Assembly (NCBI RefSeq): GCF_024502345.1
Contig: NZ_JALDNN010000001.1
DNA: 64,000 nucleotides
Direction: 5' to 3' (one strand)
Origin: Escherichia coli
GTDB lineage: Bacteria > Pseudomonadota > Gammaproteobacteria > Enterobacterales > Enterobacteriaceae
How positions within the stretch are numbered: the first letter of the stretch is position 1; every line of letters starts with the position of its first letter. The notes under the pieces were generated by a model. That model worked only from the letters and a program-made list of their open reading frames with translations. It was not told the origin of the DNA and ran no database searches. Shown in pieces: positions 1 through 34,094 of this stretch. Made by a program: the position numbers and the translations under genes.

Positions 1-168
1 ACGCGTCATTACTCAGTGGAAAATTGCGCAGAGGAAAGCTGTCGAGACTGCAATAGTTGCATTCGCCCCAGCTTTTCCCTTTCGCGTAGCGCCCTTATTC
101 GCCTGAACGCGGCGAATGCTCGTTTTGTCTATCAACCGTTTACACGCGATCAGCGGGCGAGGGGGTAA
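1..168 (+). CDS. possible 3' end of an upstream ORF cut by the window edge (frame 1 open from nt 1, stop TAA at 166-168)
   Basis: 55 stop-free codons from the window edge, ending 2 nt before the ATG at 171; too short to assign a family. Confidence 0.25.
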   Translation, partial: TRHYSVENCAEESCRDCNSCIRPSFSLSRSALIRLNAANARFVYQPFTRDQRARG

Positions 169-170
169 CT

Positions 171-938
171 ATGCAACCCAGCCCTGCCATGCAGGCATTA
201 ATTGAGCAGATTTATCACACCTTTCGTCGTTATCGGGTGCCGCAGAAATTTGTGGTTTGTTGTGAATATTGCCTGAGTCAGCAGGAACAAAAGGCATTAC
301 GGAGTACATCGTTACGAGCGATCCCGTATTCCTTAATCAATGCCTGGAATAGTAGCCCAGGGCCTGATCCGCAAAATAGCGATGAGGTCCGCTATTTTCT
401 GCCGCGTTTACTGGAATTTGTTGCACAGGGGCATTTTGACAATATTCACGTAGTTTTTTCTCTGCGCCGTATCAACCTTGCCAACAAAGAAAACTGGCGT
501 GCGGATGAACGGGCAATTTTACAGCGATTTGCCTGCCAGTATATGACTGATTGGGTATCCGGCGATGAAGCTGTCGAATTACAGTATATGCTGGAAATGT
601 TTTTCCGTGCCGATATCGCTCTTGCGCCATTGCTGGATGCCATTAATTCAGTTCCCGGCTTTTGGTCGACCGTTTCTCTTGCCTGTTTATTGAACAGATA
701 TTGTGAGGATTATATCAGAGATAACCAGGACGATATCGATAACGCCATTACCACCCAAATCAATGCCTGGGCTAGAAATAATCATCCTTTACTGAAAGAA
801 AGAGCGCGGCAAGCGATTGAGAACCCGCTAAAACAGCCCGAACCAATGACAGAATATCATGTCTGGGAAGATGACTGGATAATTGATGAGTGTTTATGCG
901 CGATGTATGACGCATCATCCGAATCACCAGGAAAATAA
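171..938 (+). CDS. hypothetical soluble protein, 255 aa, no family recognised
   Basis: ORF track; ATG preceded by GAGGGGG; AT-rich relative to glpD; cysteine clusters near both termini (VVCCEYC and ECLCAMY); not recognisable as any K-12 protein of this locus. Confidence 0.55.
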   Translation: MQPSPAMQALIEQIYHTFRRYRVPQKFVVCCEYCLSQQEQKALRSTSLRAIPYSLINAWNSSPGPDPQNSDEVRYFLPRLLEFVAQGHFDNIHVVFSLRRINLANKENWRADERAILQRFACQYMTDWVSGDEAVELQYMLEMFFRADIALAPLLDAINSVPGFWSTVSLACLLNRYCEDYIRDNQDDIDNAITTQINAWARNNHPLLKERARQAIENPLKQPEPMTEYHVWEDDWIIDECLCAMYDASSESPGK

Positions 939-940
939 AA

Positions 941-1546
941 ATGATTAAATTCCGGCTTTATATTCCCCCTGTAATTCTCGGTTTTGTTATCGTGCCATTA
1001 TTGGTATGGCCGACGGTTATTGTCTTAGCCGTACTTATATTCACGTTAACTTTTCTGGCAGAAATAATATTCTCCTTTCCGCTCCTGGTTGTACGTATTT
1101 CTCTTCAGGAATTACAACTTGAGTTAATGGTTGAATATGCACTTTTTTTCAGTGTAATGGCTGGCATCGGTTGGCAATTCTCCCGCAGAACGCCTCCTGA
1201 ATTAAAAAACAGACTGCATTGCTGGCTGGTCTTTTCGCCGGTCTATTTCTGGTTAATTCTCTCGAATTTCATTCTTTATATTTCTCCAGAGAAATCAGCG
1301 TTGCTGGAAAATATCCGAAATTTCTTTCTGACGTTTGTCTGGCCTCCCCTGAATTTTTCCCCTTTTTGGCCGCAGCCTTGGACTGATTTTGTCGGCCCGA
1401 TTAGTGCACAGCTTGGTTTTGCATTGGGATATTATTGCCATTGGTGCAGAAAAAATAGAAACCAGAGGAAGAAGTGGGGCGATTGGGTAACGTGCTTAAG
1501 TTTGGCGATTTTAGCTCAGGGGCCGTTATTCAATTATTTACAATGA
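941..1546 (+). CDS. hypothetical polytopic inner-membrane protein, 201 aa
   Basis: ATG 2 nt after the stop of the previous ORF, AGGAAA upstream; 4-5 hydrophobic helices; basic C-terminal tail (CRKNRNQRKKWG); 35-38% GC in two sampled 60-nt stretches. Confidence 0.5.
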   Translation: MIKFRLYIPPVILGFVIVPLLVWPTVIVLAVLIFTLTFLAEIIFSFPLLVVRISLQELQLELMVEYALFFSVMAGIGWQFSRRTPPELKNRLHCWLVFSPVYFWLILSNFILYISPEKSALLENIRNFFLTFVWPPLNFSPFWPQPWTDFVGPISAQLGFALGYYCHWCRKNRNQRKKWGDWVTCLSLAILAQGPLFNYLQ

Positions 1547-1567
1547 ATAGTCTAAGGAATCCAAATA

Positions 1568-1590
1568 GCCCGGTTGCACTTCAACCGGGC
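1568..1590. terminator. stem-loop (GCCCGGTT-loop-AACCGGGC) in the convergent gap just downstream of the glpD stop
   Basis: inverted repeat read directly; lies between the ends of convergent genes. Confidence 0.4.
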
Positions 1591-1597
1591 ATCATCC

Positions 1598-3103
1598 TTA
1601 CGACGCCAGCGACAACTTCTGCTGCGTATATTCCACCAGCCACTGACTCACACGAGATTGTTGATCCGCATTCAGCCACATGCCTTGTTTTGTGCGACGC
1701 CAAAGGGCATCGTCGGTGCGGCGGACCCATTCGTGATCCACCAGGTATTTCAGTTCCGCTTCGTAGAACTCATGACCGAAATCCTCCCCGAGGTCGCTTA
1801 TCGCCCCCGCATTGCCGAGCAGCAGCTCGCTGTTGCTGCCGTAAGTGCGTGCGTAATGACGCGCCAGCGATTCAGTCAGGAATGGATAGCGACGGCGCAG
1901 ACGAGCTGCGTAATCGTCGCGGTCGCCTTCAATGGCACCACCCGGCAGCACGCTCTCTTTCGTCCATGCCGGGCCAATGCCCTGATAATACGGCGTCAGT
2001 TTTTCCAGCGCATGTTCCGCCAGTTTGCGGTAGGTGGTCAACTTACCGCCGAATACCGACAGCAGCGGTGCTTTGCCGTTTTCATCATGGATATCAAGGG
2101 TGTAATCACGGGTAATAGCCTGCGGCGAGTCGGACTCATCATCACACAGCGGACGCACACCGGAGTAGGTCCAGACGATATCGTCACGGCTTAACTGCTT
2201 TTTAAAGTGCGTGTTATACACTTTCAGCAGGTAATTGATTTCACTCTCTTCAATCTTCACCGCTTTCGGATCGCCTTTGTATTCCACATCGGTGGTGCCG
2301 ATGATGGAAAACTCGTCCATCCACGGGATCACGAACACAATGCGTTTATCTTCGTTTTGCAGAATGTAGGCCTGCTTTTGGGTATGCACGCGCGGCACCA
2401 CAATATGGCTGCCTTTGATCAGGCGAATGCCATAAGGCGAAGGCAGATGCATCCCGTCGTCGAAGAACTGTTTCACCCACGGGCCGGTGGCGTTAACCAA
2501 GCCGCGCGCTTGCCAGCTATATTTTTTGCCGGTATCGATATCTTCCGCTTCCACAATCCACAGGCCGTTTTCGCGGCGAGCAGAGGTGGCGCGAGTCCGA
2601 GTAAGCACTTCGCCGCCTTTACGCACCACCATCTGGGCGTTGGCGAGTACCAGACGGGCGTCGTCTACCCAACAGTCAGAATATTCGAATCCGCGCTTAA
2701 TTTCCGGTTTTAACACTGAATTTGCGCCAAAACGCAAACCGGTTGATCCCGGCAGGCTGGTGCGTTTACCCAGATGATCGTACATAAACAGACCAATGCG
2801 AATCATCCACGCCGGGCGCAGATGCGGACGATGTGGCAGGCGAAAACGCATCGGGAAGGCGATATGCGGAGCCATTTTCAGCAGCACTTCACGTTCAGCC
2901 AGCGCCTCGCTGACCAGGCGGAATTCATAGTGCTCAAGGTAGCGCAGGCCACCGTGAATGAGTTTTGAACTGGCGGAAGAGGTCGCGCAAGCGAGATCCT
3001 GCGCCTCCAGCATCAGCACGGATAAACCGCGTCCAGCGGCGTCTGCCGCGATACCAGCACCATTGATGCCGCCACCTATCACAATCAGATCTTTGGTTTC
3101 CAT
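1598..3103 (-). CDS. glpD: aerobic glycerol-3-phosphate dehydrogenase (FAD-dependent)
   Basis: 501-aa product from METKDLIVIGGGINGAGIA (FAD-binding GxGxxG); ORF track extends 5 codons upstream; matches K-12 GlpD from memory. Confidence 0.95.
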   Translation of the reverse strand: METKDLIVIGGGINGAGIAADAAGRGLSVLMLEAQDLACATSSASSKLIHGGLRYLEHYEFRLVSEALAEREVLLKMAPHIAFPMRFRLPHRPHLRPAWMIRIGLFMYDHLGKRTSLPGSTGLRFGANSVLKPEIKRGFEYSDCWVDDARLVLANAQMVVRKGGEVLTRTRATSARRENGLWIVEAEDIDTGKKYSWQARGLVNATGPWVKQFFDDGMHLPSPYGIRLIKGSHIVVPRVHTQKQAYILQNEDKRIVFVIPWMDEFSIIGTTDVEYKGDPKAVKIEESEINYLLKVYNTHFKKQLSRDDIVWTYSGVRPLCDDESDSPQAITRDYTLDIHDENGKAPLLSVFGGKLTTYRKLAEHALEKLTPYYQGIGPAWTKESVLPGGAIEGDRDDYAARLRRRYPFLTESLARHYARTYGSNSELLLGNAGAISDLGEDFGHEFYEAELKYLVDHEWVRRTDDALWRRTKQGMWLNADQQSRVSQWLVEYTQQKLSLAS

Positions 3104-3651: not shown

Positions 3652-4494
<843 letters not shown>

Positions 4495-7037: not shown

Positions 7038-8264
7038 ATGAATTACGAATTACTGACCACTGAAAATGCCCCGGTAAAAATGTGGACCAAAGGCGTGCCG
7101 GTAGAAGCCGATGCGCGTCAGCAACTTATTAATACGGCGAAGATGCCGTTTATTTTCAAACATATTGCGGTAATGCCTGATGTACACCTGGGTAAAGGTT
7201 CCACCATTGGTAGCGTGATCCCGACCAAAGGGGCGATTATTCCGGCGGCGGTGGGCGTGGATATTGGCTGTGGAATGAACGCGCTGCGTACCGCGTTAAC
7301 GGCGGCAGACCTGCCTGAAAACCTGGCAGAGCTGCGTCAGGCGATTGAAACTGCGGTGCCGCACGGACGTACCACTGGCCGTTGTAAACGTGATAAAGGC
7401 GCATGGGAAAACCCGCCTGTTAACGTCGATGCGAAATGGGCTGAGCTTGAAGCCGATTATCAGTGGTTAACGCAAAAATATCCGCGTTTCCTTAACACTA
7501 ACAACTATAAACACCTGGGAACGCTGGGAACGGGTAACCACTTTATTGAAATCTGCCTTGATGAGTCGGACCAGGTGTGGATTATGCTGCACTCCGGTTC
7601 ACGCGGAATTGGTAACGCCATCGGGACTTACTTTATCGATTTGGCACAAAAAGAGATGCAGGACCAGCTTGAAACGTTGCCATCGCGCGACCTGGCGTAC
7701 TTTATGGAAGGTACGGAATACTTTGATGATTACCTAAGAGCCGTGGCCTGGGCGCAGCTTTTCGCCAGCCTTAACCGCGATGCGATGATGGAAAACGTGG
7801 TAACGGCGTTGCAGAGCATTACGCAGAAAACGGTCAGACAGCCACAAACGCTGGCGATGGAAGAGATCAACTGTCACCACAACTATGTGCAAAAAGAACA
7901 GCACTTTGGTGAAGAGATCTACGTGACGCGTAAAGGCGCGGTGTCTGCGCGTGCTGGTCAATATGGAATTATTCCCGGTTCGATGGGAGCAAAAAGCTTT
8001 ATCGTCCGTGGGCTGGGAAATGAAGAGTCGTTCTGTTCGTGCAGCCACGGTGCCGGGCGGGTAATGAGCCGTACTAAAGCGAAAAAACTGTTCAGCGTGG
8101 AAGATCAAATTCGTGCTACCGCGCATGTGGAATGCCGTAAAGATGCCGAAGTGATCGACGAAATCCCGATGGCGTATAAAGATATTGATGCGGTGATGGC
8201 GGCACAAAGCGATCTGGTGGAAGTTATCTACACCCTGCGTCAGGTGGTGTGCGTAAAAGGATAA
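7038..8264 (+). CDS. rtcB: RNA-splicing ligase RtcB (3'-phosphate/5'-hydroxyl RNA ligase)
   Basis: 408 aa; RtcB family recognised by sequence and by context with rtcA and rtcR. Confidence 0.93.
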   Translation: MNYELLTTENAPVKMWTKGVPVEADARQQLINTAKMPFIFKHIAVMPDVHLGKGSTIGSVIPTKGAIIPAAVGVDIGCGMNALRTALTAADLPENLAELRQAIETAVPHGRTTGRCKRDKGAWENPPVNVDAKWAELEADYQWLTQKYPRFLNTNNYKHLGTLGTGNHFIEICLDESDQVWIMLHSGSRGIGNAIGTYFIDLAQKEMQDQLETLPSRDLAYFMEGTEYFDDYLRAVAWAQLFASLNRDAMMENVVTALQSITQKTVRQPQTLAMEEINCHHNYVQKEQHFGEEIYVTRKGAVSARAGQYGIIPGSMGAKSFIVRGLGNEESFCSCSHGAGRVMSRTKAKKLFSVEDQIRATAHVECRKDAEVIDEIPMAYKDIDAVMAAQSDLVEVIYTLRQVVCVKG

Positions 8265-9284
<1,020 letters not shown>

Positions 9285-30591: not shown

Positions 30592-32214
30592 TTACAGTTT
30601 CGGACCAGCCGCTACCAGCGCGGCACCCGCAGGGGTGTCGGTGTATTTATCGAAGTTGTCGATAAACAGTTTCGCCAGGGTTTCGGCTTTTTCCTGCCAC
30701 TGTTCCGGAGAAGCGTAGGTGTTACGCGGATCGAGAATCTTCGTGTCTACGCCCGGCAGTTCGGTTGGGATCGCCAGGTTAAACATCGGCAGAGTGAAGG
30801 TTTCTGCATTATCCAGCGAACCGTTGAGGATGGCGTCGATAATGGCGCGGGTATCTTTAATCGAGATACGTTTGCCAGTGCCGTTCCAGCCAGTGTTAAC
30901 CAGATAAGCCTGCGCGCCCGCCGCCTGCATACGTTTCACCAGCACTTCTGCGTACTGAGTCGGGTGCAGCGACAGGAACGCCGCGCCGAAGCAAGCGGAG
31001 AAGGTTGGCGTCGGTTCGGTGATGCCGCGCTCTGTACCGGCCAGTTTGGCGGTGAAGCCAGAGAGGAAGTGGTACTGGGTTTGATCGGCAGTCAGACGAG
31101 AAACCGGTGGCAGCACACCAAAGGCGTCTGCGGTCAGGAAGATAACTTTCGTTGCGTGGCCCGCTTTGGAAACCGGCTTAACGATGTTATCGATGTGATA
31201 GATCGGATAAGAAACGCGGGTGTTCTCGGTTTTTGAACCATCATCAAAGTCGATAGTGCCATCTTCACGCACGGTGACGTTTTCCAGCAGCGCATCGCGA
31301 CGGATAGCGTTGTAGATTTCAGGTTCCGCTTCTTTCGACAGCTTGATGGTTTTCGCGTAGCAGCCGCCTTCGAAGTTAAACACACCGTCATCGTCCCAGC
31401 CGTGCTCGTCATCACCAATCAGGCGACGTTTCGGGTCGGTGGAAAGGGTGGTTTTACCAGTGCCGGAAAGGCCGAAGAACACCGCAACATCGCCTTTCTC
31501 ACCAACGTTGGCGGAGCAGTGCATAGAAGCGATACCTTTCAGCGGCAGCAGGTAGTTCATCATCGAGAACATCCCTTTCTTCATTTCGCCGCCGTACCAG
31601 GTGCCGCCAATCAGCTGCATGCGCTCGGTCAGGTTAAAAGCCACGAAGTTTTCGGAATTCAGACCCTGTTCTTTCCACTGCGGGTTAGTGCACTTCGCGC
31701 CGTTCATAACGATAAAGTCAGGTTTGAAACCTGCCAGCTCTTCATCGCTCGGGCGAATAAACATGTTTTTGACAAAATGCGCCTGCCAGGCCACTTCGGT
31801 GATGAAACGGACGGAAAGACGAGTATCCGGGTTCGCACCACAGAAGGCGTCGACAACGAACAGACGTTTGCCGGAAAGCTGTTTGGTCACCAGGCCTTTC
31901 AGAAGTTGCCAGGTTTCCGGAGAGAGAGGTTTGTTATCGTTCTTACCTTTGCCTTTGTCTGCCCACCAGAAAGTATCGCGAGTGGTATCGTCACGGACGA
32001 TATACTTATCTTTTGGTGAACGACCGGTGAAGATCCCGGTATCGACGGCAACGGCACCCAGATTAGTTAACACCCCGCGCTCATAACCTGTCAGGCTCGG
32101 ATCGAGCTCTTCCTGATACAGCAGGTCGTAGCTTGGGTTGTAAACGATATCATGTACGTCACTGATACCATAAGCCTCGAGTTCTTGCGGGGTCAAACCA
32201 TTGTTAACGCGCAT
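30592..32214 (-). CDS. pckA: phosphoenolpyruvate carboxykinase (ATP)
   Basis: 540 aa from [16 protein letters not shown]; kinase P-loop GLSGTGKTT; ORF track start is a 23-codon upstream extension. Confidence 0.95.
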
Positions 32215-32592
32215 TTCACTGCTCCTTAGCCAATATGTATTGCCTGAATAGTAAAGTCTTTTTGGGGGTGTTAACCGCGACAAGGCTCATAGATTTACGT
32301 ATCTGGAGAAATTCATATTTGACAAAAAACTCCGTGATTCCTGTCACGAAACGGTTGCTATTATCGCAGAAATAGCATTTTAGGTGTGGAAAATGTTCTC
32401 AAAAGGTTAAATCTTGGTTTATATGGCGGGAATATTGTGAGTGGAATCGCATTCCTGAATGAAATTGATGCAAATTCAACCGGTAAAGTATCGATTCACC
32501 ACGCTAACTTTTTTTGATTATTTTCTGAAAAAAGCAAAATACTACTGCCCGGATGCGATAATTAACCCACCTTTTGATTCTGGATAACCAAC

Positions 32593-34094
32593 ATGGATAA
32601 CGTTGAACTTTCACCCGCAACACGCTGGGGGATGATTGCTACCGGATTACTTCAGGGTCTGGTTTGCTACCTGCTGATCGTCTGGCTTTCCGGAAAAAAT
32701 CACAGTTGGATTGTTTATGGCGTGCCTGCGACCGTTGCGTTTTCATCCGTTTTACTCTTCTCCGTGATCTCTTTTAAACAGAAGCGCCTTTGGGGATGGC
32801 TGGCGCTGGTGTTTATTGCCACGCTGGGGATGAGTGGCTGGTGCTTTTACTGTGGGGCGAGTTGTTTAAACTTGTTGGCATCACGTTTTTCAAAACGCTC
32901 TTTTTTGCAACCGACTGGTTTATTTATCTCACGTTAGGTCTGGTTACCGCGCTGGCGGTGATCCTCGCGCGAACACAGTCACGTTTAATCGACTCTATTC
33001 AAAAGTTGTTCACGTTAATCGCCACGGGGTTGCTGCCGTTAGTCTCATTGCTAACCCTGATGTTTATCATCACCCTGCCGTTTACGGGCCTGAGCGCGAT
33101 TTCTCGCCACATCTCCGCCGCCGGGTTGCTGTTGACGCTGGCCTTTTTGCAATTGATCTTAATGGCTATTGTCCGCGATCCGCAAAAAGCGTCTCTTCCC
33201 TGGACGGGGCCGTTGCGTTGCCTGATTAAAACCGCTTTGCTGGTTGCTCCGCTGTATGTGTTCGTCGCCGCCTGGGCGTTATGGCTGCGGGTCGCTCAGT
33301 ACGGCTGGACTGTCGACCGCTTGCAGGGCGCGCTGGCGGTGCTGGTGTTACTGGTGTGGTCGCTGGGGTATTTTGTCAGCATTGTCTGGCGTAAAGGGCA
33401 AAATCCCCTTGTTCTTCAAGGCAAAGTGAACCTTGCGGTTTCGGTATTGGTGTTGGTGATACTGGTGCTTCTTAATTCGCCGGTGCTGGACAGTATGCGC
33501 ATTAGCGTGAACAGTCATATGGCGCGTTATCAGAGCGGTAAAAACACGCCAGACCAGGTAACTATCTACATGCTCGAACACAGCGGTCGCTATGGACGTG
33601 CGGCGCTTGAGTCGCTGAAAAGCGATGCCGAGTTTATGAAAGACCCGAAACGCTCGTGGGATCTGCTGATGGCGTTAGATGGGGAGCAAAGTCTTCAGAA
33701 GGTGGTGTCGGAAAAATCATTAGCCGAAAATGTGTTAATTGCCCCTGGTTCTGGTAAACCGGATGCGACATTCTGGTCGGCCTTAATCCAGGATCGCTAT
33801 AACGTGATGACCTGTATTGAAAAAGACGCCTGCGTACTGGTCGAGCAAGATCTGAATAGTGATGGCAGGGCAGAGCGGATCCTCTTTGCCTTTGATGATG
33901 AAAGATACATTGTCTATGGCTTTGATCCTGACAAGAAAGAATGGCAAGAGCTTACGATGAGTTTACTTCCGCGTGATATAACGAAAGAAAAATTACTCAC
34001 AGCTGCGAAGGATGGAAAACTGGGAACGAAGCCTAAAGCGTGGCGCGATCTTGTAGTGGATGGTGAAAGGCTGGGTGTGAATCTGAATGAGTGA
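32593..34094 (+). CDS. yhgE: YhgE-like polytopic inner-membrane protein; reading frame appears interrupted near 32780-32940
   Basis: two overlapping ORFs in different frames (32593-32937 and 32790-34094), both membrane-protein-like; a single uninterrupted frame is not present in this sequence. Confidence 0.55.

Follow-up and report, generated by a model that had tools for sequence, protein, structure and literature searches.

A polymorphic operon of the glgP-glpD interval in Escherichia, with a putative membrane module and a PstS-like binding domain

We examined the left-hand edge of a 64,000-nucleotide (nt) stretch of Escherichia coli DNA (the window; RefSeq assembly GCF_024502345.1, contig NZ_JALDNN010000001.1), where three short AT-rich genes face glpD. 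Window positions 1-1546 may well be the distal part of a four-gene operon, g1-g2-g3-g4, that fills the interval between glgP and glpD. Within Escherichia the operon is ancient and has been passed down at one fixed place on the chromosome. K-12 lost it by deletion; its presence is ancestral, and its absence is secondary. It bears no sign of a toxin, a phage-defense system, or a mobile insertion.

The full locus was read from L001, which comes from a genome 99.8% identical to the window. It contains glgP, a terminator, g1 (502 to 505 amino acids [aa]), g2 (236 aa), g3 (255 aa), g4 (201 aa), and the convergent glpD, in that order. The window holds the end of g2 and the whole of g3 and g4 (Table 1). 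An earlier note on this DNA, made from the letters alone, had described three co-directional frames spaced 2 nt apart and convergent with glpD. The open reading frame (ORF) list and the sequence agree with that description. The g2/g3 junction reads ...GGGGGTAA ct ATG and the g3/g4 junction reads ...GGAAAATAA aa ATG, each with a 2-nt spacer (TAA-ct-ATG and TAA-aa-ATG). The partial frame at the window edge is not the C terminus of GlgP, as the note had said. It is the end of g2, which is complete at L001 14458-15168. The note had also expected further operon genes upstream of the edge, and g1 and the rest of g2 are found there in L001.

The match of MG1655 to the full locus covers glgP and about 230 nt of g1, breaks off, and resumes only at the end of glpD. 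The yzgL gene of K-12 (NC_000913.3 3563724-3564005; L002) corresponds to the first ~76 codons of g1 (L001 12925-13154). About 270 nt of K-12 DNA between this g1 stub and glpD has no match in the full locus. This break makes yzgL what is left of the 5' end of g1 and the K-12 arrangement a deletion. The earlier note was correct that K-12 lacks the cassette and has yzgL in this place. Its reading of the cassette as a strain-specific insertion was not supported. E. coli, E. albertii, and E. marmotae all have the operon at one and the same site, no integrase or att-like repeats flank it, and K-12 represents a deletion.

The locus was then counted in 5,426 complete E. coli genomes. By megablast, 2,943 of them contained at least 80% of window positions 1-1650, with identities from ~80% to 99.8%. 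Both g2 and g3 were present at 80% coverage or more in 2,277 genomes. At least part of the g2-g3 segment was present in 3,020; among the matches shown, those below 80% coverage span g3 only. Every copy in this census was chromosomal and adjoined glpD. The locus is chromosomal and single copy, and no paralogous copy of the g2 5' end was found elsewhere in E. coli genomes. Lineages that carry the genes include Shiga toxin-producing E. coli, O104:H4, and extraintestinal pathogenic E. coli (ExPEC).

The interval exists as several haplotypes. Haplotype A contains g1-g2-g3-g4 and was found in the window and in loci L001, L009, L122, and L123. Haplotype B contains g1, a gene for a PstS-like lipoprotein, and g4. 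It was found in O157:H7 and others (885 of the 5,426 genomes). The lipoprotein has 330 aa and a lipobox, LLAGC, and is 57% identical to the binding domain of g1 (L008 3192-4184 in O157:H7; also L006 and L127). The g4 allele of haplotype B is 70% identical to the g4 of the window. Haplotype C has an internally deleted g2, and its g1 and g4 are pseudogenes with internal stop codons. Haplotype D, from B2/ExPEC strains, contains the seven-gene auf fimbrial operon in the position of g1, followed by g2-g3-g4 (L121 4440-4510; L124 7235-14400). A 3' remnant of g1 (…VENVGYVPMNKMLH, to its stop) lies directly upstream of g2 in haplotype D. Because this remnant persists, haplotype D derives from type A.

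Haplotypes A and B differ by a clean swap. L001 14428-15900, from the g1 stop codon to about 40 nt before the g4 start, is replaced by L008 3152-4146. In haplotype A g3, and in haplotype B the lipoprotein gene, end in 11 codons of common DNA, identical at 30 of 36 nt (window 905-940, which is L001 15905-15940, versus L008 4150-4186). This tail encodes MYDASSESPGK in g3 and LYEASPESSGQ in the lipoprotein. The shared codons place the right-hand junction of the swap within the 3'-terminal part of the middle gene, and the ribosome-binding context of g4 therefore travels with g4 in both haplotypes.

We also observed a 14-nt direct repeat, GGAWAATAAAAATG, with 13 of 14 positions identical, at L001 14447-14460 and 15930-15943 (the latter is window 930-943). 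The two copies end at the start codons of g2 and g4 and bracket the g2-g3 block exactly. The repeat may be due to chance or to a common ribosome-binding context, or it may mark a cassette boundary.

The same site in E. albertii contains glgP, g1, a gene for a 375-aa protein, g2, g3, g4, a gene for a 350-aa ankyrin protein, and glpD. The two extra genes lie at L125 4094-5221 (375 aa) and, downstream of g4, at 7400-8452 (350 aa, ankyrin repeat). The same site in E. marmotae contains haplotype B. Haplotype A was found in two species, and so was haplotype B.

No integrase was annotated in any haplotype locus. Repeats in the interval were only 14 to 23 nt long and at chance level, and none was found at the glgP or glpD boundaries. 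Insertion sequence elements were seen only as secondary insertions in single strains. With no integrase and no boundary repeats at glgP or glpD, the locus does not have the makeup of a mobile genomic island. Only g3 was searched against 50,697 phage records, and it had no match there. In the plasmid collection, g3 had no genuine plasmid copy; its two matches were a mislabeled 4.8-Mb chromosome and a weak Deinococcus match. The former, PLSDB NZ_OL790696.1, is filed as a plasmid, contains 4,795,340 bp, and holds the chromosomal glgP-glpD locus. It is evidently a mislabeled chromosome.

The glgP-glpD interval is already known as variable region GR 24, and in ExPEC it is where the auf operon lies (PMC12928451). 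The accessible literature describes it with the auf genes only and does not mention g1 or g2-g4 (PMC12928451; PMC5956150). The auf island of ExPEC sits in the same interval, with auf immediately upstream of the same g2-g3-g4. The window haplotype differs from it in having g1 in place of auf.

The N-terminal ~200 aa of the g1 product are hydrophobic, and a PBP_like_2 domain forms its C-terminal part. This domain matches Pfam PF12849 (PBP_like_2) at 3e-31 and solved PstS proteins at an E value of 1.5e-18, and it keeps the R..SGS loop. In g1, a putative polytopic membrane module is thus joined to a PstS-like binding domain on the periplasmic side. The earlier note had suggested that the main gene of the module may lie upstream of the window; g1, a predicted membrane-anchored PstS-like binding protein, is not an effector.

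Of the known systems, Pst is the one that g1 resembles. Both the g1 binding domain and the lipoprotein of haplotype B are clearly homologous to PstS/PBP_like_2 proteins and retain the R..SG(S/T) anion loop. No PstC, PstA, or PstB gene is present in any haplotype. The likeness to PstS is confined to g1, which lies upstream of the window, and to the haplotype B lipoprotein; g2, g3, and g4 have no counterpart in Pst. The fusion partner of the g1 domain is a polytopic module found only in Escherichia.

The product of g4 is a basic (pI 9.3), polytopic membrane protein. Outside E. coli, its homologues were confined to E. albertii, E. marmotae, and Escherichia sp. Profile alignment makes it probable that g4 and the N-terminal membrane module of g1 are paralogues, with g4 as the free-standing copy. 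In hhalign, the g4 profile matched the g1-module profile with a probability of 75% and an E value of 2.5e-5. The match runs collinearly over 164 columns and takes in the motif (V/I)xP(I/V)(S/G)A(Q/H)(L/I)xF(A/S)LGY. A first run with a shallow g1 profile had given a probability of 4.7%, which rose to 75% when the E. albertii paralogue was added. This paralogue is the 375-aa protein, which contains the g1 membrane module (30% identity, E value of 1e-20) and an unrelated C-terminal domain. The module contains six or seven hydrophobic segments, judged by eye. In haplotype B, g4 follows the separate PstS-like lipoprotein, so the module and the binding domain occur both fused (g1) and split (the lipoprotein plus g4).

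The product of g2 is a cytoplasmic protein with homologues only in Escherichia/Shigella. Its C-terminal Cys cluster is not kept in the most distant homologue. The full protein had no Pfam or PADLOC match. It scored 22 to 27 bits against NCBIfam NF007301, versus a cutoff of 373, and only residues 7-49 were matched. This partial match is probably the source of the "YbbD family" label on some RefSeq records of g2. We rejected that label as a subthreshold, partial match. A tblastn comparison of g2 with the ybbD region of K-12 was not significant. The AlphaFold2 model of g2 had a predicted local distance difference test score of 57, was built from a shallow 8-sequence alignment, and was not usable. 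BLAST gave a hint that g2 and g3 are related (E value of 0.006), which a profile comparison (0.1% probability) did not uphold.

The product of g3 is an acidic (pI 4.9), cytoplasmic protein whose close relatives are restricted to Escherichia. It is confidently modeled as a 12-helix, all-alpha, repeat-like fold. Helical-repeat (HEAT/TOG/ARM-like) and DUF1266-like bacterial proteins are among the closest known systems. A phmmer search retrieved 461 cluster representatives (50% identity) of 240 to 270 aa at an E value of 1e-3 or less. In a 111-sequence alignment, Y15, F18, C30, C34 (usually CxxCC), FLPR at 76-79 (including P78 and R79), and E113 were conserved at 90 to 99%. g3 has full-length similarity to this family and carries all of these residues. 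It belongs to a large, unannotated family that is absent from Pfam.

The wider search for this family used a degenerate DNA pattern for E-x-K-[YH]-FLPR-x-L-[ED] over 100,044 species genomes, followed by a filter with a hidden Markov model (HMM) made from the 111-sequence alignment. It retained ~60 loci in Bacteroidota, Beta- and Alphaproteobacteria, and Actinomycetota. Unfiltered pattern matches, such as many Burkholderia loci, were false positives and were removed by the HMM. The neighbors of the distant g3 loci were not conserved, and none resembled g1, g2, or g4. A Pfam census of 149 neighbors counted only families matched by at least two of them, the commonest with three members each, and contained no toxin, immunity, or defense family. 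Ten large upstream neighbors include Der, MetZ, MurJ, LysS, DauA, a major facilitator superfamily (MFS) exporter, and a benzoyl-CoA-reductase-like activase; three were essentially unannotated. The family also includes tandem duplicates and one two-domain fusion. An enterobacterial-looking metagenome contig (L003 8001-9586) contains two g3 paralogues in tandem (262 and 261 aa) with a gap of 11 nt. They are flanked by an aldo-keto reductase gene and a beta-lactamase-family (PF00144) gene, with no g1, g2, or g4. The other metagenome contigs with distant g3 relatives were too short for gene context.

The four genes are under purifying but relaxed selection. They are fast-evolving, fall into deep allelic lineages, and are compositionally atypical. 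The ratio of nonsynonymous to synonymous divergence (dN/dS) was calculated by the Nei-Gojobori method from 6 to 10 alleles per gene. It was 0.14 for g1 (mean dS, 0.26), 0.21 for g2 (0.17), 0.21 for g3 (0.21), and 0.23 for g4 (0.20). For the neighboring genes it was 0.037 for glpD (mean dS, 0.14) and 0.040 for glpG (0.045). The g3 protein is 86 to 91% identical between E. coli lineages, hardly more than the 84 to 85% between E. coli and E. albertii, versus 98 to 99% for GlpD. Conservation in E. albertii and across thousands of E. coli genomes, at dN/dS values of 0.21 to 0.23, marks the window frames as real genes.

The earlier note had judged the cassette AT-rich from short samples, and the full composition bears this out. 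The GC content of g3 is 0.454 with a third-position GC content (GC3) of 0.445, and that of g4 is 0.416 with a GC3 of 0.436. Rare codons make up 6 to 7% of both genes. For glpD the GC content is 0.552 and the GC3 is 0.618, and for glpE, glpG, and glpR the values are 0.538 to 0.539 and 0.61 to 0.64, with 1 to 3% rare codons in all of these neighbors. As that note had anticipated, the products hit no housekeeping family, the genes are absent from K-12, and their composition deviates.

A toxin/immunity-type or phage-defense-type module, which the earlier note had raised, is not supported by what we found. The PDB, phage, and plasmid comparisons lent it no support either. The products of g2 to g4 had no PADLOC, Pfam, or NCBIfam hits, and the distant g3 genes have housekeeping neighbors. 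PADLOC (PADLOC-DB 2.0) gave no credible match for g1, g2, g3, g4, or the haplotype B proteins. Its one match was a chance-level QueC (E value of 0.056) on a 55-residue fragment of g2. In PHROGs, none of g2, g3, and g4 had a significant match (best E value, 0.005), and domain searches found no nuclease, NTPase, TIR, SIR2, or protease domain in the products. The genes are like type II toxin-antitoxin pairs in being small, tightly coupled, variably present, low in GC, and fast-evolving. They differ from such pairs in having no toxin or antitoxin family hits and no DNA-binding antitoxin, and the proteins are larger than typical components. In contrast to polymorphic toxin/immunity cassettes, the locus encodes no toxin domain or delivery gene and is not mobile. 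Nor does it have the layout of an immunity cassette of the Rhs, contact-dependent inhibition, or type VI secretion kind, since the genes upstream are g1, the auf fimbrial genes, or glgP and not a toxin.

The reading we favor, tentatively, is an envelope-associated system built around the membrane module. The module would be the core of a sensing or uptake system with periplasmic oxyanion-binding domains. The cytoplasmic g2 and g3, translationally coupled to g4, would act as cytoplasmic partners or regulators of this module. We consider such a function possible rather than probable. On this reading, the locus would be neither a toxin-antitoxin pair nor an immunity cassette nor a phage-defense system. 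A bolder extension, which we consider improbable, is that the Escherichia-specific module may be an undescribed envelope core, free-standing as g4 or fused to exchangeable periplasmic domains (PstS-like in g1, an uncharacterized one in the 375-aa protein of E. albertii), with g2, g3, and the ankyrin protein as cytoplasmic partners. The alternative cassettes would then persist as long-lived haplotypes common to E. coli, E. albertii, and E. marmotae, through balancing selection exerted by phages, competitors, or the host.

Several results weigh against this envelope-associated system. No homology assigns a function to g2, g3, or g4. A binding protein can take the place of the g2-g3 pair, and the middle cassette may thus be functionally independent cargo. 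Although homologous, the g1 domain falls below the curated PstS threshold (121 bits against TIGR02136, under the NCBIfam cutoff of 206.6); g1 and the haplotype B lipoprotein together score 119 to 121 bits. The homology of g4 and the g1 module is one profile comparison at 75% probability from shallow alignments, and g4 was not significantly similar to full-length g1 by single-sequence BLAST. The distant g3 relatives stand alone, without g1, g2, or g4 partners, and g3 therefore need not act with membrane proteins. A promoter scan found no more sites than in shuffled sequence. Decay is also common, with premature stops in g1 and g4 of one strain, a g3 frameshift in another, and deletions. The locus is dispensable, because such pseudogenes and deletions are frequent.

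The main rival is that g2-g3 is unrelated, horizontally acquired cargo in a recombination hot spot. It would have its own cytoplasmic function, such as a Cys-dependent enzyme or a metal/redox protein, and no functional link to g1 or g4. We regard this as a possible, though doubtful, explanation, about on a par with the envelope function proposed above. It draws on the stand-alone g3 genes elsewhere, with their varied housekeeping neighbors and tandem copies that lack g1 and g4, on the low GC3, and on the exchange of the g2-g3 block, as a unit, for the PstS-like lipoprotein gene. The near-invariant C30, C34, R79, and E113 resemble a ligand site or an active site more closely than a surface for docking, and the interval is the recognized variable region GR 24 with auf in ExPEC (PMC12928451). 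This explanation is opposed by the 2-nt coupling of g2-g3-g4, which persists in different E. coli lineages, in E. albertii, and in strains with auf in place of g1. It is also opposed by the restriction of g2 and g4 to this locus. The remaining rivals are less likely.

It is unlikely that g2, g3, g4, and the E. albertii ankyrin protein form an array of orphan immunity or polymorphic-toxin-related genes directed against the toxins of competitors. Such an array would account for small, fast-evolving, co-directional genes with deep allelic classes and tandem g3 paralogues. The ankyrin-repeat gene of the E. albertii version and the modeled all-alpha, repeat-like fold of g3 would fit it as well. The N terminus of g2 has a weak link to NF007301, and this model also weakly matches K-12 YbbD, which is encoded downstream of rhsD. 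However, no haplotype has a toxin, Rhs, CdiA, PAAR, VgrG, or secretion gene at the locus. The upstream genes tested at distant g3 loci are Der, MetZ, MurJ, LysS, and others of that sort, and no toxin or immunity family was among those with at least two of the 149 neighbors. The near-invariant residues are unusual for immunity proteins, and g2 is dissimilar to the ybbD DNA of K-12.

It is very unlikely that the genes are decaying relics that persist by drift and have no function. The K-12 deletion, the strains with g1/g4 premature stops or a g3 frameshift, and the many partial proteins in the databases would be expected of relics. However, dN/dS is ~0.2 over a dS of ~0.2, and therefore most amino acid changes have been removed. 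The frames are also intact in thousands of genomes and in a sister species at 84 to 86% protein identity. Least likely is a new anti-phage defense system with g4 as a membrane effector and g2 or g3 as cytoplasmic sensors: variable presence, AT-richness, tight coupling, a soluble plus a membrane protein, and fast evolution would suit one, but PADLOC gave no credible match, PHROGs hits were not significant, the products lack recognizable nuclease, NTPase, TIR, SIR2, or protease domains, the annotated neighbors and haplotypes lack defense genes, defense islands, and mobile elements, the position between glgP and glpD is fixed in three species, and a solute-binding lipoprotein can stand in for the cassette.

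The convergent g4 and glpD are separated by a GC-rich hairpin (Table 1). It contains 9 pairs, 7 of them GC, and the terminator scan placed a T-run after it on the minus strand. Its folding energy is -23.5 kcal/mol (z score, -5.5), and 0 of 200 shuffles folded equally well. The hairpin is the glpD terminator and probably also ends the operon. Rfam had no match anywhere in the window.

Table 1. Features at the left-hand edge of the window (window coordinates)
Feature	Position	Strand	Basis or remark
g2, C-terminal part (last 55 codons)	1..168	+	ORF list 16..168; open at window start
g3 (255 aa)	171..938	+	ORF list
g4 (201 aa)	941..1546	+	ORF list
Hairpin GCCCGGTTG-CACTT-CAACCGGGC	1568..1590	.	GC-rich; between convergent g4 and glpD
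glpD, core gene	1598..3103	-	Annotation of the 99.8% identical locus L001; right-hand limit of the variable interval

Two further observations concern the rest of the window. The mean dS of glpD (window 1598-3103) is about three times that of glpG (3664-4494), two genes away (0.14 versus 0.045). This synonymous excess would fit old haplotypes of the variable locus that reach glpD by linkage. At 32593-34094, beside pckA (30592-32283, minus strand), a gene for a membrane protein is split into two ORFs of 114 and 434 aa that overlap in different frames. By its place on the K-12 map, this gene is probably yhgE with a frameshift; alternatively, the split may be an artifact of ORF calling.

Our literature searches found nothing on these genes, and the mentions of yzgL were incidental. 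As far as the searchable literature shows, there appears to be no description of how the operon is built, of where yzgL comes from, of the series of haplotypes across three species, of the recurrent module, or of the g3 family. The interval was already known as a variable region, and thousands of genomes carry these genes under the label "hypothetical." K-12 lacks them, and so they are not known to have been the subject of any study, and yet more than half of sequenced E. coli carry them. The locus can now be approached as an ancestral, polymorphic Escherichia operon and not as an insertion, with yzgL as its K-12 remnant and with a g3 family that is absent from Pfam. A tempting but unsupported "defense/toxin" label is removed. 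Alternative haplotypes at one site in three species provide a tractable case for how accessory envelope loci persist.

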